From a virus, in the UHGV virus genome UHGV-0177677: a stretch of 38,330 bases of DNA; one strand, 5' to 3'. Numbering within the stretch: the stretch's first letter is position 1; each line of letters opens with the position of its first letter. The notes under the pieces were generated by a model. It worked only from the letters and a program-made list of their open reading frames with translations. It was not told where the DNA came from and ran no database searches. Of this stretch, positions 4,412 to 22,192 are shown one piece after another. The position numbers and the translations under genes are program-made.

Positions 4412-4638
4412 TGGCTGATGCAATGGATCTCGTACAGCAGCGCGTTGAAGAAGAACGCCAACGCCATATCCGTGCTGCCCGTGCCAAAACGCCGGGCGTG
4501 TCCCGCGTGCTTTGCATTGAGTGTGAAGCGCCAATTCCGCCAGCACGCCGCCGTGCCATTCCGGGTGTGCAGCTTTGCATTACCTGTCAGGAAATCGCAG
4601 AGCTGAAAGGCAAACATTACAACGGAGGTGCTGTATGA
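4411..4638 (+). CDS. TraR/DksA-family C4 zinc-finger protein
   Basis: 75 aa with CxxC...CxxC (CIECEAPIP...CITCQ), a typical phage TraR-like protein. Confidence 0.7.
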   Translation: MADAMDLVQQRVEEERQRHIRAARAKTPGVSRVLCIECEAPIPPARRRAIPGVQLCITCQEIAELKGKHYNGGAV

Positions 4639-5492
4639 GCACCATCCTGAAATGGGCGGGAAATAAAACTGCCATAATGTCCGAACTAAAAAAACATCTT
4701 CCTGCTGGCCCGCGACTGGTTGAACCTTTCGCGGGTTCCTGTGCTGTGATGATGGAGACGGATTATCCCAGCTATCTGGTTGCGGATATTAATCCTGATT
4801 TAATCAACCTCTATAAAAAGGTTGCCGCTGATTGTGAATCGTTTATATCTCGCGCCAGAGTTTTATTTGAGATCGCAAACAGGGAGGTGGCTTATTACAA
4901 CATAAGGCAGGAGTTTAATTACTCAACTGAAATTACTGATTTCATGAAAGCGGTATATTTCCTGTATCTCAATCGTCACGGTTACCGTGGTTTATGTCGC
5001 TATAACAAGAGCGGGCATTTCAACATTCCCTACGGTAATTATAAAAATCCGTATTTCCCTGAAAAAGAAATTCGCGCATTTGCAGAAAAGGCCCAGCGAG
5101 CAACGTTTATCTGCGCCAGCTTTGATGAAACGCTGGCGATGTTGAAGGCGGGGGATGTGGTGTATTGCGATCCGCCGTATGACGGTACGTTTTCCGGCTA
5201 TCACACTGACGGCTTCACTGAAGATGACCAGTATCACCTGGCATCTGTTCTTGAACATCGGTCATCAGAAGGACATCCGGTCATTGTTTCTAACAGTGAC
5301 ACATCCCTGATCCGTTCGCTGTATCGCAATTTTACTCACCACTACATCAAGGCAAAACGCAGCATCGGTGTGGCAGCTGGCGAGGGTAAATCAGCAACAG
5401 AAATCATTGCTGTTTCCGGGCCGCGCTGCTGGGTGGGATTTGATTATTCGCGTGGCGTGGATAGTTCTGCCGTGTACGGAGTACGTGCATGA
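4635..5492 (+). CDS. dam: DNA adenine methyltransferase (Dam-like, GATC-type N6-MTase)
   Basis: [11 protein letters not shown]... start, AdoMet motif (PFAGS), catalytic DPPY (CDPPYDG). ATG at 4635 with RBS ggagg. Confidence 0.85.
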
Positions 5493-7903
5493 GTCATGCC
5501 GATATGAACAACTGCTGCGGCTTTAACGAAGCTGCCGCATCGTTCTCATGGAACAGCTCGAAAAAGGCCATTAACCCTTATCTGGACCCGGTGGAAGTTG
5601 CGCCGGTTTCTACGCTTTCAAATCTGATCACTCTGTACGCTGCCGATAACGAGCAGGAACAGCTGCGCCGTGAGGCGCTGAGTGATCAGGTCTGGGAGCG
5701 TTATTTCTTTAATGAATCCCGTGATCCTGTCCAGCGCGAAATGGAACAGGATAAGCTCATTAGTCGGGCAAAGCTGGCGCATGAGCAGCAGCGTTTTAAT
5801 CCGGATATGGTCATTCTGGCGGACGTCAACGCCCAGCCTTCCCATATCAGCAAGCCGCTGATGCAACGTATTGAATACTTCAGCAGCCTGGGCAGGCCAA
5901 AGGCTTATTCCCGCTATTTACGTGAGACGATTAAGCCATGTCTGGAACGACTGGAGCATGTACGCGACAGTCAGCTATCTGCATCTTTTCGCTTTATGGC
6001 AAGCCATGAAGGGCTGGACGGCCTGCTGATCCTGCCTGAAATGAGTCAGGATCAGGTGAAACGCCTGTCCACCCTGGTAGCTGCGCATATGAGTATGTGC
6101 CTTGATGCCGCTTGTGGCGATTTGTATGCCACCGATGACGTTAAGCCAGAAGAAATCCGCAATACATGGGAAAGGGTGGCAGCGGAAACCCTGCGTCTGG
6201 ATGTCATCCCGCCTGCGTTTGAGCAACTCCGTCGGAAAAGAAACCGCCGTAAACCCGTGCCCTATGAACTCATTCCGGGGTCGCTGGCGCGTATGTTGTG
6301 CGCCGACTGGTGGTATCGGAAATTATGGAAGATGCGTTGCGAATGGCGGGAAGAGCAGTTGCGTGCTGTCTGCCTTGTCAGCAAAAAAGCATCTCCCTAT
6401 GTCAGCTATGAAGCCGTGTTGCATAAACGTGAGCAGCGCCGTAAGTCGCTGGAGTTTTTCCGTTCTCATGAACTGGTGAACGAAGACGGCGACACGCTAG
6501 ACATGGAGGATGTGGTAAACGCCAGCAGCAGCAACCCTGCGCATCGCCGCAATGAGATGATGGCCTGTGTTAAAGGTCTGGAGCTTATCGCGGAAATGCG
6601 CGGTGACTGCGCCGTTTTCTACACCATCACCTGTCCGTCACGTTTCCATTCCACGCTAAATAACGGCAGGCCCAACCCGACCTGGACAAATGCGACGGTA
6701 AGACAAAGCAGCGATTATCTGGTCGGTATGTTTGCTGCATTTCGTAAGGCGATGCACAAAGCCGGGTTGCGCTGGTATGGCGTGCGGGTGGCTGAGCCGC
6801 ATCACGACGGTACAGTTCACTGGCACCTGTTGTGTTTTATGCGCAAAAAAGACCGCCGCGCCATCACTGCATTACTGCGTAAGTTTGCCATCCGTGAAGA
6901 CCGCGAGGAGCTGGGCAATAACACTGGGCCGCGCTTTAAGTCTGAGTTGATTAACCCGCGCAAAGGTACGCCAACAAGCTACATCGCGAAATACATCAGT
7001 AAGAACATTGACGGGCGTGGTCTGGCTGGCGAGATCAGCAAGGAAACGGGGAAATCCCTGCGTGATAATGCTGAATACGTTAATGCCTGGGCGTCTCTGC
7101 ATCGTGTTCAGCAATTCCGCTTCTTTGGCATTCCGGGGCGTCAGGCTTACCGTGAACTGCGATTGCTGGCTGGTCAGGCGGCAAGGCAACAGGGGGACAA
7201 AAAAGCAGGTGCGCCGGTACTGGATAACCCGCGCCTTGATGCAATCCTGGCTGCTGCTGATGCTGGTTGTTTTGCCACCTACATCATGAAGCAGGGCGGC
7301 GTACTGGTTCCCCGCAAATATCACCTGATCAGAACCGCTTATGAAATCAACGAAGAGCCGACCGCCTATGGCGATCACGGCATTCGTATTTATGGCATCT
7401 GGTCACCCATTGCAGAGGGCAAGATCTGCACTCATGCAGTGAAGTGGAAAATGGTTCGTAAGGCCGTTGACGTTCAGGAGGCGGCAGCCGACCAGGGCGC
7501 TTGCGCCCCTTGGACTCGTGGCAATAACTGTCCCCTTGCTGAAAATTTGAACCAACAGGAGAAAGATAAATCAGCTGATGGGGACACCAGAACGGATATT
7601 ACCCGCATGGATGACAAGGAGTTGCACGATTTTCTGCACAGTATGAACAAAAAAGAGCGCCGGGAACTGGCTACAAGGTTACGCCTGGTGAAACCGAAAC
7701 GGCGTAGAAACTACAAACAGCGAATTACAGACCATCAACGACAGCAGCTCGTCTATGAACTGAAGTCCAGAGGATTTGATGGCAGCGAGAAAGAGGTAGA
7801 TTTACTCCTTCGCGGTGGCAGTATTCCGTCAGGAGCAGGCCTGCGTATCTTCTATCGGAACCAGCGTCTGAAGGAAGATGATAAGTGGCGGAACCTGTAT
7901 TAA
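5489..7903 (+). CDS. A: Replication initiation protein A (rolling-circle nickase, P2 gpA family)
   Basis: 804 aa; conserved gpA-like motifs ([32 protein letters not shown]). Start overlaps the dam stop (ATGA). Confidence 0.9.
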
Positions 7904-8647: not shown

Positions 8648-9073
8648 CTACTTAATTGAGTCCAGTAACAAGTTACAGTTACTCTCATTGTAGAGAGAAC
8701 GAGCAATTAGTGTTACCTGCTTTCCATTCATTCCCGGCTTATCCCATAACACAGCTTCTTGCGACGCCACAAATTCAGCATAATCAATTATGCGTTGTTC
8801 GTGATCTGGTTCCTCATAGCCAAAGTATGAGAGCGCATCGTTGTAAGCGTGGTAAGCTGCTTTCTGTAATATCTTGATATCGGCTGTAGGTACTTGCTCC
8901 GTGTAGCTAGGATCTAATTGTGTGCTACTGCCATAGAATGCACATGAAAGGTAAGATATTGATTTCTGTTGAGCTTTAGTTCCTTTCTCATAGTTTTTAG
9001 CTGTTACCGCCTGAACTGGGACGCTAACAAAGCTTGCAACCAGAATTAAAATTAATACGTAAAAGCTTTTCAT
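8648..9073 (-). CDS. Secreted/periplasmic hypothetical protein (moron)
   Basis: 141 aa with a signal peptide (MKSFYVLILILVASFVSVPVQA). Opposite strand to the neighbouring phage genes, relatively AT-rich. Confidence 0.5.
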   Translation of the reverse strand: MKSFYVLILILVASFVSVPVQAVTAKNYEKGTKAQQKSISYLSCAFYGSSTQLDPSYTEQVPTADIKILQKAAYHAYNDALSYFGYEEPDHEQRIIDYAEFVASQEAVLWDKPGMNGKQVTLIARSLYNESNCNLLLDSIK

Positions 9074-9345
9074 TTTGACCTCAGCCGAAACGTTAGAGAG
9101 ACTATCGAAGTTTGTAAAACCCGTGGCGATTCAGTTTGAGATCCTCCCCCTTACATGATTTTTAATCAAATATATGCTTTTGTAAGCATACCTGTTAACC
9201 GAATTATTCATTTTTAGAGATCTTCCGACATACTGATTATGCCCGCTGAGGAGTTCACCTTGCGTAAAGTCCGATTCGCTTTACTCGTCTGTGCATGTCT
9301 ATGCTGCATGAGATTGCATGATCGTTTGAGGATCGTTTTTGCTAA

Positions 9346-9371
9346 GGCCCGCCAGAACTGGCGGGCTTTTG
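9346..9371 (+). terminator. Rho-independent terminator-like hairpin
   Basis: gcccgccag / ctggcgggc stem followed by TTTT at 9367-9370. Confidence 0.4.
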
Positions 9372-9415
9372 CGTAGATTATGCACCTGCATGAAAACCAC
9401 TACATAAAGCGGGCA

Positions 9416-9434
9416 GGCGTGGCGGGGATACGAG
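9416..9434. other. Putative cos site (cohesive-end sequence)
   Basis: GGCGTGGCGGGGATACGAG: the first 13 nt equal the start of the 186 cohesive end as I recall it (GGCGTGGCGGGGAAAGCAT; P2 GGCGAGGCGGGGAAAGCAC). Confidence 0.45.
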
Positions 9435-9577
9435 CGCGCGCTTAGATGAAAACATGCGCTGTTAGACAGAAGATAGTCTTAGACTTGAAAGCACTCCTAT
9501 ACCTGGGTAAGTTATTGGAATACTCCCATTGATCTCCCGAAGACGACCTTGTGTTGCAATTTCAACAGGTAATTAAG

Positions 9578-10684
9578 ATGACAGGAAATGTCCCAGTAGT
9601 ACTTAGTGAAGCAGAAATGAAATCCATTTTGACACTAATCACGAGATTTCCATGGAACGTGGCAAAACCTGTTATTTCAGCTCTTGGATTAGCTCGTGGT
9701 AAAGGTAGAGATGCTACTCATGGAAAAATACTGGAAGAATTAACAGAATTAAAGGAAAAGAATTTAAATAAATTTAATGATATCATAAGGTCTGTAAATA
9801 ATTTGATATTTGGTCAATTGGTCTACGGTGATAAAGCTTTTTTTTGTTTATCAGTAGACAACCAAATAATTTCCTCGCTAACAAAGGCTATGAAATTAAA
9901 GTGGGATTTATCTGAACAGCCTTCTGTCGCCTCAGATGTAATCCTTTCTGAGCAGGAAATTAATGCGTCGGGGAAGAATAAAATAAACTTAGTTCATTAT
10001 TCTGAGAGCAATAATCAGGCTTTAGCTCTATTTAGTTCCGTTAGAGAGCAAAAAATTAGAGAGCGGATTTCGCCTAAAAGTTTACCGCAGTACAGTGGCT
10101 ACGAAGAGATCATTGCTACTAAAAAAGAAAAGCATCAATGTTTTGATGTGTGCATTTTTAATAAGACCAACTCTACTATCTCTATTTTGATAGATGCAGG
10201 TATTAATACAATAGGTGAGAGCGTCTTGTTTGCAAAGAGTACTGTAGTAAGAGAACTTTATAATATTATAGGTGCTGAGTTTGCATCAAAAGAAAGAGAT
10301 TTCTTTCCCTTGATTGAACCAATCTTTAAGCAAGATCAAAAACCATACTCAACTCTTAATTATAAAGTTTTTGAGCTTTCATTCCTTACCCCTGAAGGGA
10401 CAACACATAAGGAAAGGAAAACTGACTCCACTAAAGATTTGAGACAAGATATCTTCAATCAAGAAGGTATTAAAGCCGTAGGCAATATCGGACTTTATAG
10501 GATAGGCATCAGGGTTGAGCGAACAAATCCTTTACTACAGTTAGCGGACAATGTAGAACTTACTATACCAGGAACGCTAAGACGGTACCTTGGTGGAAGC
10601 TCTGGTTCACCAGTGAATTTTGCTATACTTAGTAAATGTATCTCTCGTGATGATTTCGAAACGCTTACGAAGCTGATACTATAG
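9578..10684 (+). CDS. Hypothetical protein, gene 1 of AT-rich three-gene accessory cassette
   Basis: About 368 aa from ATG at 9578 (the track ORF uses GTG at 9551). No recognisable motif. Strongly AT-rich. Confidence 0.6.
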   Translation: MTGNVPVVLSEAEMKSILTLITRFPWNVAKPVISALGLARGKGRDATHGKILEELTELKEKNLNKFNDIIRSVNNLIFGQLVYGDKAFFCLSVDNQIISSLTKAMKLKWDLSEQPSVASDVILSEQEINASGKNKINLVHYSESNNQALALFSSVREQKIRERISPKSLPQYSGYEEIIATKKEKHQCFDVCIFNKTNSTISILIDAGINTIGESVLFAKSTVVRELYNIIGAEFASKERDFFPLIEPIFKQDQKPYSTLNYKVFELSFLTPEGTTHKERKTDSTKDLRQDIFNQEGIKAVGNIGLYRIGIRVERTNPLLQLADNVELTIPGTLRRYLGGSSGSPVNFAILSKCISRDDFETLTKLIL

Positions 10685-10696
10685 CTGGAGACAAAA

Positions 10697-11125
10697 ATGA
10701 AGGATGCTAACTTGGCAAAGACTATACAAGACATATGCTCAGAACGCCCAGAAGTGGGAGTTTTGGCGTGCATGTTTTATGAAAAACTTGCTAAGTTAGC
10801 AGCTCGCTCTCCTAATATATTCATTAGTTATAACCTTTTATTTGATATAGCGATTTCGAATAAGGGGGGCGCTAAAGTGGATGAGCATGATATTTACTTG
10901 GCTATCCAAGTTTTGTGTAATCCAAAAGTTAATTTTTTGAAATTAAACTATCAATTTATAGACGATGGTTTCGATCCAGTTAATATAAGCATTGCGGACG
11001 TGATTGATGCTGAAGATAATCAAGGTTTAGAGCATCCATATACTGGTGAGATTGTGCCAGACTACAAAAAATATGTATTTCCTTTCTTTACAGTTATTAA
11101 TTTCACAAAGGAAGGGGCGTACTAA
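10697..11125 (+). CDS. Hypothetical protein, gene 2 of the accessory cassette
   Basis: 142 aa, RBS ggaga, 12 bp after gene 1. No recognisable motif. Confidence 0.6.
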   Translation: MKDANLAKTIQDICSERPEVGVLACMFYEKLAKLAARSPNIFISYNLLFDIAISNKGGAKVDEHDIYLAIQVLCNPKVNFLKLNYQFIDDGFDPVNISIADVIDAEDNQGLEHPYTGEIVPDYKKYVFPFFTVINFTKEGAY

Positions 11126-11772
11126 TGCTTACAAGTCTGGATGATTTGGAGAAAAACTTTCATTTGCAGAAGGTTCACTTTGCCATTCAAAGGATTCAAT
11201 TTGCGTTGGAGTCCTATTCTAATTTCAACAGTCTTGTTCGAAAGGAGCTGGATTACGCTGTAAGTAAATTAGAGCAAAATGGCAATAAAATTAACTTTGA
11301 TCTCTCTGAAGATCAGTTAACTCTATATTTGCTTTCGTATGTTGAAAATAGATATCTGGGGCTCGAAGCCAGTCACGAGAAGAACCAGAGAGGACATTGT
11401 GATATATCTATTACCCTTGCAGATTATATCTGGCATGGGGAAGCTAAAAAACATTCTTCATATTTATATCTTTTTAAAGGTTATGCACAACTTACCGAGC
11501 GGTATAGTACTGGGACTATAAATAGCTCTTCGGGTGGTTTAATTATTTATACGAAAAACGCTTCCTGTTCTGACATGATGGATTCATGGAAAACATTCTT
11601 ATCAAAGAATGCACCTAGGATTCATGCTTGTAAATCCGTTAATATTATTGATTGCCCAAAAAACCCCTTGGTTTTTTATAGTCAGCACCTTCATACTGTA
11701 AGTAAGCTGGATTATCAAGTTGTGCATTATCCTGTATCATTACATCATAAACCTATAGACCCTGATCTATAG
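11125..11772 (+). CDS. Hypothetical protein with possible PD-(D/E)xK nuclease-like motif, gene 3 of the accessory cassette
   Basis: 215 aa; start overlaps the gene 2 stop (TAATG). Segment GHCDISITLADYIWHGEAKK fits D-x12-E-x-K. Confidence 0.55.
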   Translation: MLTSLDDLEKNFHLQKVHFAIQRIQFALESYSNFNSLVRKELDYAVSKLEQNGNKINFDLSEDQLTLYLLSYVENRYLGLEASHEKNQRGHCDISITLADYIWHGEAKKHSSYLYLFKGYAQLTERYSTGTINSSSGGLIIYTKNASCSDMMDSWKTFLSKNAPRIHACKSVNIIDCPKNPLVFYSQHLHTVSKLDYQVVHYPVSLHHKPIDPDL

Positions 11773-11807
11773 GTTAGCTTTTGCGGGCTTATTCAGCTAT
11801 TTGAGAG

Positions 11808-12848
11808 TTATTGCTCAATTGAGAGCTGATACGCTTCAAAATTTATTACTTTTTCCTCAATCCATTCGTTCAGTTCGCACATACGTTTCTGCAATGGCTG
11901 CAGTTCGTTACGTACAAAAACGCGAGCGGCTTTTTCCACATCCCCAAACCCCCCGACATTATTAGGCATAATCCCCATCATTTGCGGCGGCACGCGATGC
12001 GCTGCCATCATGTCATCCCGACTCACGTTCTTGATGTTAAGAAATTCATCCTTCGCCGCGACTTCTGACAATGGGATGATCTGAAGCCCGTCTTTTTTAC
12101 CGTTAGGCGAGTACATAAACAAGTTGCGGAAGTTGCCTGGACCTTTGGCGCTTTTCATTGCGTTGCGGAGGTTGTTCACATCCTCCTGGTTTTGCGCGGC
12201 ATCGGTCATGTACATGATGAAGCCTGCATGACTACCGTTAATGTAATACTTCCGGCGGAACAGCGTGGCGGACTCGTTGAGCAGAGCGGACGGAATGGCA
12301 GAAAGATAACCGGGCAGGCCGTAGATCTCCTGGTTGATGTCCGGTTCCAACAGATGAAAGATGCTGCCTTTCGTGAACTGATACGGCTGGGTTGTCATAC
12401 CGTATTGCACAAACCAGTAGGTATCCAGGTCTAACCCGCGTCGGGTGTATTTTGCCAGCGCAGGCTCAAGAGCGATGACCTCTCCGAAGCGGTTCGTGCG
12501 TTTTTCCAGGTAGGCGTTACCAAAAACCAGATAGTCCTGTACAAAACGCGAAAAAGCCTGCTGGCTGAGCAGCGGGTGAGGGATGTAGGTGCTGGTCAGA
12601 ATGTTGCATTTCACCGCAATTGGTGAACTGTGATGCACGGCAGCGCGGAAGGTGCGCGCCAGTCCGTCAAAGCTGACAGGAGGCTCATACCAGCGATCTG
12701 TCTGTACGCATTCCACATAGTCCAGCAGTTCGCGGCGGTCAAGTACAGGAACGGGATCACCGAAGCTGAATGCTTCGGCTGAAGTCTGGCTTTTATGCTT
12801 GAGCTGATTCGTCGCCGCAGCGCGGTTTTTCTTACTCTTTCCCATCAA
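11808..12848 (-). CDS. Q: Portal protein (P2 gpQ)
   Basis: 346 aa, MMGKSKKNRAAA... P2 Q-like N-terminus. Adjacent to and overlapping the terminase gene. Confidence 0.9.
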   Translation of the reverse strand: MMGKSKKNRAAATNQLKHKSQTSAEAFSFGDPVPVLDRRELLDYVECVQTDRWYEPPVSFDGLARTFRAAVHHSSPIAVKCNILTSTYIPHPLLSQQAFSRFVQDYLVFGNAYLEKRTNRFGEVIALEPALAKYTRRGLDLDTYWFVQYGMTTQPYQFTKGSIFHLLEPDINQEIYGLPGYLSAIPSALLNESATLFRRKYYINGSHAGFIMYMTDAAQNQEDVNNLRNAMKSAKGPGNFRNLFMYSPNGKKDGLQIIPLSEVAAKDEFLNIKNVSRDDMMAAHRVPPQMMGIMPNNVGGFGDVEKAARVFVRNELQPLQKRMCELNEWIEEKVINFEAYQLSIEQ

Positions 12849-14611
12849 AAAATCTCCACAATATTGCTGGTATTGGCGGACTCGCCCTGCAGCGGTTCGT
12901 TAAACAGTGCGTGCATCGTTGCCCAGGCCAGATCGGCGTGGCTGGCTTCTTCGCTGCGGCTGGCTTCATAGGTCGGGCGGTTGCCACTGGCGGTGGTGGC
13001 GCGACGGATTGCCATAAATGACTGCGCTATGTCGGTGTGTCCGGCGTCAAACTCCAGACGACGGTGACTGATAATGTCGTAGGCTTTGAGTACCAGTGCG
13101 TTTTTAACGTTGGGGTTGTAGACAAACTCCCGGACGGCAGGAAAGAACGCTTTCACGTTCTCGTAAACCCCGTGACCGACACCTGTTGAGTCGATGCCGA
13201 TATAGGTCACGTTGTACTGTTCGGTCAGTTTTTTGATGGCGTCAGCCTGGGCGCGGAAGTCCATCCCGCGCCACTGGTGACGCTCAAGAATGCGAAACTT
13301 ACCGCCTGGCACGGCTGGCGGTGCCACCACCACGCATCCGGCGCTGTCGCCGTTCTGCGTACCTTTCGCCGGGTCATAACCGATCCACACTTCGCGCCAG
13401 CCAAACGGGCGCAGTGCCAGTGCATGAAAGTCGGTCCAGACTTCCCAGCTGTCCACCATGCACGCCTGCAGCTCGCTGAGCGGAAACACGGACGCGAGAT
13501 CGTCCACGAACTCGCACATCAGCAGGTTCTGGTATTCGTCCGGGCTGTACTCCATGCGCAACTGGTCAAGGTCGAACAGGTTGCAGCCGCCGCGCACCGC
13601 ATCTTCCACGGTGACTATCTGGCGGTATTGCCCGTCTGCGCACAGCAGGCCGGGGGCCAGATTGCTGTGGGACAGGTCGATGTCCACCTTATCGGCTTTG
13701 TTGCGCCCACGGTTGAACAGCGCACCGGACCAGAACGGATAAGCACTGTGTGTCAGACTGGATGGCGTGGAAAAATAGGTCTGTCGCCATTTTTTGTGAA
13801 TAGCCATACCGGAAGCCACTTTGCGCAGCTCCTGGAATTTCGGTATCCAGAAATATTCATCCAGATACAGGTTGCCGTGGTAACTCTGGGCCGTGCGGGC
13901 ATTGGTGCCGAGGAAGTAAAGCGTGGCCCCGTTGGGAAGCACCATCGGATCGCCTTTCAGTTCCACATCCACTTCTTTGGCGAAGTCGATGATGTACTGC
14001 TTAAAGACGTGGGCCTGTGCCTTGCTGGCGGAAAGGAAAATCTGGTTACGTTCGGTAAGCAGGGCGTCAATCAGGGCTTCACGGGCAAAGTAAAAGGTCG
14101 CGCCGATCTGGCGTGACTTCAGCAGGTTGCGGATGCGGTTGGTTTTTCCGGCTTCCCACCAGTGGCGCTGGTAGTTGAACATGGAGGAATGGAAGATTTC
14201 TTCCAGCTTCTCAATCTGTTCATCGGTGAAGACATTCTTTTCCGGCTGGCGGCGCGGGCCTTTGTTGCGGTTGGCGACGTTAGGGTTTAAGTCAGCTTCG
14301 TTGCCGCCATTGTTAAACTTGCCGATCCGCGCGTGGCGCTCAGACTGGCGCGCCAGCAGGTCAATCTCTTTGAAATCTTTCCCTTCTTTGTGCTCCTTCA
14401 TAATGAGCTGGCAGTAGCGTGCGGCGGTGGTGAGCTGCATCTGATCCAGCGGCCCATAGTCACCCCACTTGTCGCGTTTTTTCCAGCTGTGAACGGTTGC
14501 AACTTTCTCGCCCAGCATTTCAGCAATGCGGGCAACGCGGTATCCCTGAAAGTACAGCAGCATGGCCTGCCGACGGGGATCGAGATCTGCGGGTGTCAGT
14601 GTGGTGTTCAT
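12845..14611 (-). CDS. P: Terminase large (ATPase) subunit (P2 gpP)
   Basis: 588 aa, P2 gpP-like length and position, divergent from O. Confidence 0.9.
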   Translation of the reverse strand: MNTTLTPADLDPRRQAMLLYFQGYRVARIAEMLGEKVATVHSWKKRDKWGDYGPLDQMQLTTAARYCQLIMKEHKEGKDFKEIDLLARQSERHARIGKFNNGGNEADLNPNVANRNKGPRRQPEKNVFTDEQIEKLEEIFHSSMFNYQRHWWEAGKTNRIRNLLKSRQIGATFYFAREALIDALLTERNQIFLSASKAQAHVFKQYIIDFAKEVDVELKGDPMVLPNGATLYFLGTNARTAQSYHGNLYLDEYFWIPKFQELRKVASGMAIHKKWRQTYFSTPSSLTHSAYPFWSGALFNRGRNKADKVDIDLSHSNLAPGLLCADGQYRQIVTVEDAVRGGCNLFDLDQLRMEYSPDEYQNLLMCEFVDDLASVFPLSELQACMVDSWEVWTDFHALALRPFGWREVWIGYDPAKGTQNGDSAGCVVVAPPAVPGGKFRILERHQWRGMDFRAQADAIKKLTEQYNVTYIGIDSTGVGHGVYENVKAFFPAVREFVYNPNVKNALVLKAYDIISHRRLEFDAGHTDIAQSFMAIRRATTASGNRPTYEASRSEEASHADLAWATMHALFNEPLQGESANTSNIVEIF

Positions 14612-20573: not shown

Positions 20574-22094
20574 CTAAGCTGGGGTTATCAGAGTATCAAT
20601 TCTCTTGATATCTGCAGCCGTTGCGTGAGGGCATTTTTTCAGGATGTTTAGCCATTTTTTATCTCTGGGTTGGTATTCTAAGTCACCATCGGTTTCAAGT
20701 TTCGAAAGAATGCCAACAATATCACTGTGGCTAATCCAATCTTGTTTTTCTTTAAATACATTCCATGTTGCCCAGCACTTCCCTATTTCAGATGGGGACG
20801 ACCATCGCATAATTTCTATTATATGGGATATTTTTTTGTCGAAACTTTCAGTGCCGGGGCTAGGGCTTATTCTTAAAATGTTAGAGAAAGGTACTTCAGC
20901 ATAGTTGAAGTCCCAAACCCCTTCTGTTTCGATGCACATTTTGACAACAGAAGCATGAAAATCTTGACGTATAAGCTCGTCAGGGTAACCGTGATTGTTG
21001 CTAAGTGTTATGACTACATTAACTAAAGCATCGAACTCTCTGTAGGGGATAATATTGTCTGGAGAAAGAAGTTTTCCGCCGAATTGAATGTACAATATTG
21101 GTTTCTTTAGAATGTCAATTATGGCTTTTGTCACGGCCCAGCTTGCAGCTCTTTGAGGACATAAGGCTTCTAGTTCCGCTTTTTTATTTTTTTTTCCTTT
21201 CGTAACGGTATCCATTACAGTTTTTATTTTGGGAAGAACATGTTCGTGCTCAAGGTTGAAACGATGAGGTGATTCTTTAAAGGATTTATATTCCTGAGAT
21301 AAATCTGCAAGGAAGTCTTCTATGGTTGCTTTAATCAGGTGTATATTTTTTGATTTAAATAAATACTTTGTCTCCTCGAAAGTTAAAGGGTTTGCATCTG
21401 GGTGAATTACCATGAATGCTGGCGGGTTTTTTCCATGCAGATGTGCTAATGCTTCTTCATAAAGGAAACCTATATTGGGGTCGGTTAAGCTGTAACCGAT
21501 GAATATAGGGGACATTTCTGAAAACAATGTGTAAATTTTTCGGCTAAGATAAGTGTCTTCGCGCTGAAAAGAAAAGTATTGACTTTGTGTTATAACAATC
21601 GAATCAGGTTTTCCGACGTCACCATGAATTTTGAAGATATTTTTCCCTTTTGTTGATACTTTAGGGAATGGATCCTTTCTGATGATTTTATTTGCCATAT
21701 GCTCAAATGTTTCTTCAAGCACCTCATCCCAGTTAGTTGTTACAATTGTATTGGGAGCGAAGAGTTTGAATCTTTTAAGCCATCTTGGTTCTTTAGTTTC
21801 TGTTTTTAAATCTATAATCGTCCTGGCAACGAGCGAATTGAAATCATATTCTTTTATTGATGATTCACTCATCGCATAACTTAAAAGTAATTCTGCAGCA
21901 CGCAGAGGCTGTGATGAATCTAATTTTAACGGGTACTCTATTCGCTTTGCTATTTCTTCAAGTACGGCCCCCCAACTTGGATATCCGAAATTGTACGAAA
22001 ATCCAGAGCCAATCCAGAGGAAATAACTCTTTGAAAATACTGATGATAATAGGGATTTTTTATTTTCTGAAGATAATTGATCTAAGCAACTCAT
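20574..22094 (-). CDS. SIR2-like domain protein (ThsA/DSR-type N-terminal SIR2 plus unknown C-terminal domain); candidate NADase defence effector
   Basis: Motifs WIGSGFS, TTNWDEVLEE, KIHGD, FIGYSLTDPN match the defence-associated SIR2 family. Likely start is ATG at 22092-22094 with RBS ggaagga (the track ORF extends to 22163). AT-rich, opposite strand, inserted between S and V. Confidence 0.8.
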   Translation of the reverse strand: MSCLDQLSSENKKSLLSSVFSKSYFLWIGSGFSYNFGYPSWGAVLEEIAKRIEYPLKLDSSQPLRAAELLLSYAMSESSIKEYDFNSLVARTIIDLKTETKEPRWLKRFKLFAPNTIVTTNWDEVLEETFEHMANKIIRKDPFPKVSTKGKNIFKIHGDVGKPDSIVITQSQYFSFQREDTYLSRKIYTLFSEMSPIFIGYSLTDPNIGFLYEEALAHLHGKNPPAFMVIHPDANPLTFEETKYLFKSKNIHLIKATIEDFLADLSQEYKSFKESPHRFNLEHEHVLPKIKTVMDTVTKGKKNKKAELEALCPQRAASWAVTKAIIDILKKPILYIQFGGKLLSPDNIIPYREFDALVNVVITLSNNHGYPDELIRQDFHASVVKMCIETEGVWDFNYAEVPFSNILRISPSPGTESFDKKISHIIEIMRWSSPSEIGKCWATWNVFKEKQDWISHSDIVGILSKLETDGDLEYQPRDKKWLNILKKCPHATAADIKRIDTLITPA

Positions 22095-22128
22095 AAGAAT
22101 CCTTCCAAAACAGATTTGATGATCATCT

Positions 22129-22146
22129 TGTGTGGGTGACTGCACA
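22129..22146. promoter_or_regulatory. Late-promoter activator site TGT-N12-ACA upstream of V (P_V)
   Basis: TGTgtgggtgactgcACA, part of the palindrome TTGTG-N10-CACAA, about 55 bp upstream of the V start codon. Confidence 0.6.
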
Positions 22147-22192
22147 AACCTCTTTAATATCACTGTCGTTTACGATAGGCAATGATTTCCAT

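Follow-up and report, generated by a model that had tools for sequence, protein, structure and literature searches.

The third gene of a three-gene cassette in a P2-like prophage (positions 11125-11772, plus strand) encodes a 215-residue protein that is predicted to adopt the PD-(D/E)xK (restriction-endonuclease) fold and is very probably an active nuclease, the sole enzyme of the cassette. We think it probable that this protein is the metal-dependent cleavage subunit of a cargo defense system located at the P2 hotspot, in which an RdgC-like protein would recognize DNA of an infecting phage and a small adaptor would dock the nuclease onto it.

Results

The cassette occupies the cargo slot beside the cos-like site of a P2-like prophage

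The window, a stretch of 38,330 nucleotides from the viral genome UHGV-0177677, is a P2-like prophage. Its integrase (691-1821) and CI repressor (2139-2714) are encoded on the minus strand; a Dam-type methylase gene (4575-5492) lies ahead of the gene for replication protein gpA (5489-7903), which is followed by a DinI-like gene and then by a cos-like packaging site (9400-9442). The 43 bases of this site are 100% identical to a segment of phage Cartapus annotated as 'putative cos site, homologous to the cos of P2 phage'. In the prophage, the cassette begins some 135 bp to the right of the cos-like site, and beyond the cassette are the portal gene Q (11808-12848) and the terminase gene (12845-14611), both on the minus strand; the ORFs beyond the terminase presumably encode capsid and tail proteins, by comparison with the annotation of Klebsiella phage KP12. 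The insert between the cos-like site and Q consists of three co-directional genes and has a GC content of 0.37-0.40, compared with about 0.55 in the ORFs downstream of it. A scan of the cassette for promoters and terminators returned none above shuffle expectation.

The interval between gpA and gpQ that adjoins cos is a known P2 defense hotspot (PMC9122126; PMC13586616), and KP12 carries the cassette in the same slot. The cassette is rare: of 5,426 complete E. coli genomes, 6 have it, and in at least 1,243 records the match to the query is confined to its cos-like left end of about 50 bp. In the E. coli genomes and in KP12 its genes are annotated, without exception, as three hypothetical proteins. 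The exact three proteins correspond to WP_032254892, WP_042050665, and WP_042050668, which Rousset et al., 2022 list as 'hypothetical' P2-locus cargo (Table S5; PMC9122126). Peptide strings from the cassette were absent from the tested-system tables of that paper, searches of the literature and supplements by RefSeq accession and peptide returned its catalogue table only, and the cassette was found neither in the DefensePredictor supplements nor by full-text accession searches.

The nuclease motif is conserved throughout a large family

The original prediction of a nuclease was based on a motif, an acidic residue and a hydrophobic strand ending in aspartate followed by 12 residues and E-A-K, that falls within the segment LEASHEKNQRGHCDISITLADYIWHGEAKKH (residues 80-110 of the protein; nucleotides 11362-11454). 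The spacing is present as described, with exactly 12 residues between Asp93 and Glu106-Ala107-Lys108. The aspartate itself is also present, but it does not end a hydrophobic strand; in the structural model it sits directly before strand β2 (residues 94-98). The motif alone is not beyond chance, because the bare pattern D-x(10-30)-[DE]-x-K arises in 70% of shuffles of the 215-residue protein and stricter, strand-aware versions arise in 3-10%. It is lifted above chance by conservation in the family together with the predicted fold.

A profile search over 1.84 billion cluster representatives (50% clustering) recovered a nuclease family of 685 representatives at E ≤ 1e-3, of which 300 reach E ≤ 1e-30; a first homolog search had returned 50 proteins with identities down to 34%. 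Conservation was counted on the best 150 of the 685 family members, which are 25-41% identical to the protein in the window. The 'PD' aspartate Asp93 (codon 11401-11403, plus strand, within GHCD) is invariant in 149/149 aligned sequences, and in the E-A-K triplet (11440-11448, plus strand) Glu106 and Lys108 are invariant (150/150 each) and Ala107 is nearly so (145/150). Gln122 and Tyr127 are each conserved in 150/150. The acidic residue proposed upstream of the aspartate was identified less well: Glu81 is unconserved, whereas position 85 is Asp or Glu in 135 of 149 relatives. Another acidic residue, Glu62 (codon 11308-11310, plus strand, within SEDQLT), had been overlooked and is invariant (148/148); on these sequence counts Glu62 and Glu/Asp85 are the candidate metal-site acids beyond Asp93 and Glu106. 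Asp100 is unconserved in the family. An alignment of 31 sequences gave a compatible set of invariant positions: Glu62, Asp63, Thr66, Gly90, Asp93, Trp103, Glu106, Ala107, Lys108, His110, Gly119, Arg126, Tyr127, and Tyr142.

The predicted fold resembles dsDNA restriction enzymes

Structure prediction had been named beforehand as the test on which the nuclease reading could fall. An AlphaFold2 model built on the family alignment (pLDDT 91.8, pTM 0.86) has a restriction-endonuclease-like core, and the reading survived. The model comprises an N-terminal helical hairpin (residues 5-51), a catalytic core (62-143), and a C-terminal α+β part (148-205). The elements of the core follow the order α-β-β-β-α-β: a helix that begins with Glu62 (62-73), three strands (80-83, 94-98, and 101-109), a second helix (113-127), and a final strand (136-143). 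Asp93, immediately ahead of β2, is in the canonical position in the model, and Glu106 and Lys108 lie on β3. The protein would thereby show the features that define the PD-(D/E)xK superfamily, the core fold with an aspartate at the start of β2 and (D/E)xK on β3, with these residues invariant family-wide.

The best structural matches of the model are dsDNA restriction enzymes of the BamHI/OkrAI/BglII group. These BamHI-like Type IIP enzymes (OkrAI 3odh, BamHI 1bam, BstYI 1sdo, and BglII 1d2i) are only 6-11% identical to the cassette nuclease, which has no sequence homology to them detectable by phmmer, profile hmmsearch, or Pfam and differs from them by its extra N-terminal helical hairpin. They differ also in setting: no cognate DNA methyltransferase is found next to the nuclease, the cassette consisting of proteins 1-3 only, and the Dam-type methyltransferase of the prophage, about 4 kb away, is taken to lie outside the cassette.

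DNA is the likelier substrate of the predicted nuclease because its structural neighbors cut dsDNA, its partners handle DNA, and its homologs in Bradyrhizobium have a Lys-rich tail that resembles histone H1 when inspected by eye. The PD-(D/E)xK superfamily also includes RNA-cleaving members, and a protein with the same fold could instead act on tRNA, rRNA, or mRNA as a translation-blocking abortive-infection toxin. This seems very improbable: the best structural matches are dsDNA enzymes, every partner identified is a DNA-handling protein, and the Lys-rich tail of some homologs suggests DNA binding.

Pfam, NCBIfam, and PADLOC gave no family match to the nuclease, and it matched no known nuclease when all PDB sequences were searched by phmmer and by profile hmmsearch. 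Pfam and NCBIfam likewise returned nothing for the two partner proteins. Sequence and profile searches of the PDB with proteins 1, 2, and 3 gave nothing meaningful; among the PADLOC-DB v2.0.0 HMMs, proteins 2 and 3 were without a match and protein 1 had only a chance-level match to Cas9 (E 0.2). PHROGs assigned the cassette proteins, the nuclease included, to families of unknown function only.

An RdgC-like protein and a small adaptor precede the nuclease

Protein 1 (9578-10684, plus strand) has 368 residues when read from the ATG at 9578, the start used by its homologs; the mechanically called ORF begins at a GTG at 9551. It has no family matches and no enzymatic signature. In fold searches its best structural match was RdgC, and its predicted structure, by which alone it is related to that DNA-binding protein, resembles RdgC; the corresponding hhalign comparison was insignificant (probability 0.2%). 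We propose that it is a DNA-binding sensor or targeting subunit. Protein 2 (10697-11125, plus strand; 142 residues) is an obligate neighbor of the nuclease and is referred to here as the adaptor. A GGAG lies just upstream of its ATG, and its TAA stop overlaps the ATG of the nuclease gene (TAATG). For protein 2, neither Pfam nor the PDB yielded relatives, even when a 30-sequence profile was used. No ATPase or other evident switch was found in the cassette, and when membership of the STAND/NLR-like systems was considered, an NTPase or NACHT module was found to be absent from its proteins.

The gene order is reminiscent of the PANGU operons, which combine a YejK-like nucleoid-associated protein with effectors (bioRxiv 10.64898/2026.04.06.716658): in both cases a gene for a non-enzymatic DNA-binding protein comes first and the effector gene or genes come after. 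A related mechanism could operate here, with a nucleoid-bound protein 1 being freed when a phage degrades the host chromosome and activating the nuclease via protein 2, leading to abortive infection. RdgC is annotated as nucleoid-associated, in the Cluster3 class of PANGU the nucleoid-associated protein gene is followed by two conserved hypothetical genes, and one of 27 protein 1 homologs gave a weak NA37 match (E 0.08). PANGU is defined on YejK-like proteins, however, and protein 1 has no significant match to NA37 or to any other Pfam family. Its hhalign probability against E. coli YejK was 0.1%, and two fold searches also argued against a YejK-like identity, with the YejK structure 9be2 absent from the top structural matches. 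Identification of protein 1 as YejK-like was therefore rejected. A PANGU-like mechanism would also leave the restriction-motor and NACHT versions described below unexplained, and the effector pair of the cassette differs from PANGU in attaching to restriction motors as well. We regard this mechanism as improbable.

The nuclease travels with the adaptor in diverse genomes

To define the genetic context of the family, the six-frame ORFs of every retrieved locus were searched with profiles of proteins 1, 2, and 3. The adaptor domain was encoded directly upstream of the nuclease in all complete loci except one (L028, described below). Among viral contigs, the adaptor was present in 62 of 63 loci and protein 1 in 60 of 63. 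When the search was instead started from protein 1 in metagenomes, an adaptor gene followed in 34/34 and a nuclease gene in 30/30 of the loci that reached far enough. Protein 1 was not found with other effectors; the metagenome scan gave the same trio only, and a viral scan with a close profile returned the same contigs only.

The three-gene form, with a protein 1 homolog (about 340-420 residues), a standalone adaptor (116-172 residues, mostly about 130-150), and the nuclease, was found in about 100 loci. Its hosts include Enterobacterales, Plesiomonas, Paracoccus, Bradyrhizobium, Neorhizobium, Alteromonas, a cyanobacterial MAG, and Ca. Schmidhempelia. Outside phage, the neighbors of the cassette include SIR2, integrase, kinase-helicase, PLD nuclease, HsdR-HNH, TerL, and TraI genes, surroundings that are typical of defense islands or mobile elements.

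About 60 of the loci with the cassette are on phage or prophage contigs, as would be expected if the nuclease served the prophage itself. Modulation of RecA-dependent recombination is a function of RdgC, and accessory genes for recombination are frequent in phages. The nuclease could accordingly modulate recombination or repair together with an RdgC-like RecA regulator, degrade host DNA, or be a selfish homing-type nuclease. Such a service would not account for the rare and patchy occurrence of the cassette among P2-like phages, its low GC content and position in a swap-prone defense hotspot, or the association of the same nuclease with restriction enzymes, NACHT STAND proteins, and non-phage defense islands, and we consider it highly improbable.

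The adaptor and nuclease are also attached to restriction motors, and the nuclease alone to STAND NTPases

Five distinct Type ISP enzymes (1763-1779 residues) have an adaptor as their C-terminal segment of about 130 residues, with the nuclease gene located downstream and overlapping the stop codon of the enzyme gene by 4 nt. Alignment of the Type ISP enzyme with LlaBIII covers residues 13-1626, and the adaptor lies beyond the aligned region, at about 1645-1776. The enzyme's own Mrr-type nuclease motif is intact, as judged by alignment of DTGxDLVA...AIQxKFY with LlaBIII. A second arrangement was found at locus L027, where an Eco57I-type methylase gene is followed by a gene for a ResIII helicase with a C-terminal adaptor and then by the nuclease gene. 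At L028, the nuclease gene overlaps the end of the gene for a 1249-residue HsdR in a Type I hsdM-hsdS-hsdR operon. This HsdR retains its HSDR_N nuclease domain and carries an extension of about 136 residues; the extension has no HMM match to the adaptor, and their hhalign probability is 12%.

Long, distant members of the family have a different architecture. Seven of nine are NTPases with NACHT and HEAT-repeat domains in which the nuclease is the C-terminal domain; of the other two, one is a HEAT-only fragment and one is without a Pfam match. The NACHT-HEAT fusions have no adaptor domain, and the catalytic residues are kept in all of them. Their matches begin at about profile position 21-39 (most at 31-39), so that the first N-terminal helix is largely or entirely missing from them. 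Loss of this helix from adaptor-less fusions would be expected if the N-terminal hairpin docks the adaptor.

These architectures bear on the proposal, also made from the initial inspection, that the third protein is the probable effector of its cassette. Indirect support comes from two directions: it is the sole cassette protein with a recognizable enzyme fold, and elsewhere it forms the last domain of NACHT-HEAT STAND NTPases or is added to restriction motors, a reuse that is the mark of an effector.

The same architectures also make credible an alternative function for the module, and we view this as the main rival to the tethering mechanism set out below. Protein 2 may mask a latent toxin, the nuclease, which would be freed when a phage attacks or inhibits its partner, either the RdgC-like protein or a restriction motor, with anti-restriction proteins being one possible means, and would then kill the infected cell. 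The PrrC anticodon nuclease, which is masked by the EcoprrI restriction enzyme, provides an analogy. The adaptor is encoded immediately upstream of the nuclease in an overlapping frame, as in toxin-antitoxin pairs, and this layout of overlapping stop and start codons and strict adjacency is compatible, at the level of sequence, with protein 2 being an antitoxin and protein 3 a toxin. Protein 1 lacks an enzymatic signature. The adaptor-bearing motors keep their own nuclease domains, so that a second cutter would be redundant for restriction but sensible as a back-up; the role of an extra cutter is thus not obviously needed, and these domains fit a guard or latent toxin at least as well. In contrast, the NACHT-HEAT fusions carry no adaptor domain, and masking by the adaptor is therefore no general requirement of the nuclease. 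On balance, we regard a guard function as possible but unlikely.

Discussion

The mechanism that we favor for the cassette is one of tethering and local activation. The RdgC-like protein 1, presumably a dimer, would recognize a DNA state or species made by an infecting phage. Protein 2 would dock the nuclease onto protein 1, probably via the N-terminal helical hairpin of the nuclease, and partner-driven proximity or dimerization would turn on DNA cleavage such that the competitor phage is blocked. The same logic would suit Type ISP or Type I motors when they collide and STAND proteins when they oligomerize. The predicted fold, the conservation of the catalytic residues, the synteny, the alternative architectures, and the hotspot location reported here were each computed, and the cassette is in our view a strong candidate for an anti-phage weapon.

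A broader reading, which we put forward tentatively, is that the adaptor and nuclease constitute a portable plug-in module for cleavage or guarding and that the phage cassette is a new three-component defense system with an RdgC-type sensor. The module would then be carried by Type ISP enzymes, a ResIII helicase, probably Type I motors, and the RdgC-like ring protein of the phage, with the nuclease alone being fused also to NACHT-HEAT STAND sensors; at least three or four unrelated DNA-surveillance machines may thus have acquired it. The sensor of the phage cassette might read the state of the DNA and not a sequence or a methyl mark.

Several known systems resemble the cassette in part. Unlike free-standing restriction-modification enzymes, the cassette nuclease is accompanied by an adaptor domain and by a partner that is a sensor or a motor. 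HamA (Hachiman), NucC (CBASS and type III CRISPR), Can2, McrC, and the Shedu protein SduA, which are nuclease effectors of multi-protein defense systems, belong to different sequence families from the nuclease studied here. The partners of the cassette nuclease are an RdgC-like protein and an adaptor of about 130 residues, unlike the helicases or cyclic-nucleotide sensors associated with effectors of these types, and no ligand-binding domain is evident. At L028 and at the Type ISP loci, as with PrrC and EcoprrI, the gene for a separate nuclease is linked, physically and genetically, to an ATP-dependent restriction enzyme. PrrC is an ABC-ATPase-linked anticodon nuclease and not a PD-(D/E)xK protein. 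The coupling also differs: the cassette-type nuclease would be joined to the motor by a dedicated adaptor domain at the motor's C-terminus.

The cassette likewise has the hotspot and the possession of three unannotated genes in common with the hp + hp + hp system, which we take to be the one named Rst_3HP. That system, from E. coli E1114, has been validated against phage P1 (Rousset et al., 2022; PMC9122126). When its proteins in Table S2A were compared by eye with the 368-, 142-, and 215-residue proteins of the cassette, they looked unrelated, and an identity of the two systems was rejected. What is new here are three unannotated protein families, a candidate RdgC-like sensor, and a portable adaptor-nuclease module that the cassette shares with restriction enzymes; grafting of an adaptor and nuclease onto restriction enzymes was not described in the literature that we searched.

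These findings offer a first clue to the function of a three-gene cargo at the P2 hotspot that was previously only catalogued, and of a large nuclease family (685 clusters at 50% identity) that is 'hypothetical' in all of the databases and records tested. Glu62, Asp93, Glu106, and Lys108, together with the boundaries of the adaptor, are ready targets for mutation. The presence of the adaptor and nuclease on Type ISP, ResIII, and possibly Type I enzymes suggests that these enzymes have a second layer, which may provide either extra cleavage or a guard against anti-restriction. If the cassette does defend its host, it would add a system with an unusual, non-enzymatic RdgC-like sensor.

Conserved residues of the probable nuclease and its homologs

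In the alignment of the target nuclease family, histidine and cysteine residues are conserved in addition to the catalytic set: His84 in 125 of 148 sequences (codon at 11374–11376 of the window), His91 and Cys92 in 135 and 80 of 149, respectively (codons at 11395–11400), His190 in 130 of 150 (11692–11694), and His201 in 147 of 149 (11725–11727). These residues may mark a second metal site. The Bradyrhizobium homologs P0041/P0042 (locus L003, 6001–6780) carry a C-terminal tail of ∼50 amino acids rich in Lys, Ala, and Pro (KKKRGAKKGAKKAGKK...), which may be an added DNA-binding element; by eye, the tail has a histone-H1-like appearance.

Neighbourhoods of related loci

The protein-1 gene of Klebsiella sp. 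I138 (L012, 6428–7557) is split into two overlapping ORFs of 145 and 233 amino acids, with the adaptor and nuclease genes intact; gene decay, a frameshift, or an error in the sequencing could account for the split. In Neorhizobium (L025), the three-gene cassette is flanked on one side by a Type I HsdR that bears an HNH domain at its N-terminus (8662–12285, minus strand) and on the other by a PLD-like protein and a fusion of a protein kinase to an SF1 helicase, an arrangement resembling a dense defence island. At locus L027, an 1817-residue multidomain protein (9072–14522) containing DUF4011, SF1 helicase (AAA_11/12), MTES_1575 REase, and GreA/GreB C-terminal domains lies just downstream of an MTase, ResIII-adaptor, and nuclease trio.

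Other genes of the prophage

A Dam-type D12 N6-adenine methyltransferase gene (4575–5492, plus strand) is positioned directly upstream of the gpA replication gene, which it overlaps. Between the DinI-like gene and cos is a 141-codon ORF (8648–9073, minus strand) whose product has a hydrophobic, signal-like N-terminus and matches phrog_7437, a PHROG of unknown function (E = 4e-99); phage KP12 contains a different gene of 678 nt in this slot. A 529-residue SIR2-like protein is encoded on the minus strand at 20574–22163, as indicated by matches to Pfam SIR2_2 (3.5e-26) and to PADLOC PDC-S25 (7.6e-29) and ThsA (7e-25). Its gene is inside an island of GC 0.37 within the presumed tail-gene region, and we interpret it as defence-type cargo, the second that this prophage carries besides the cassette.
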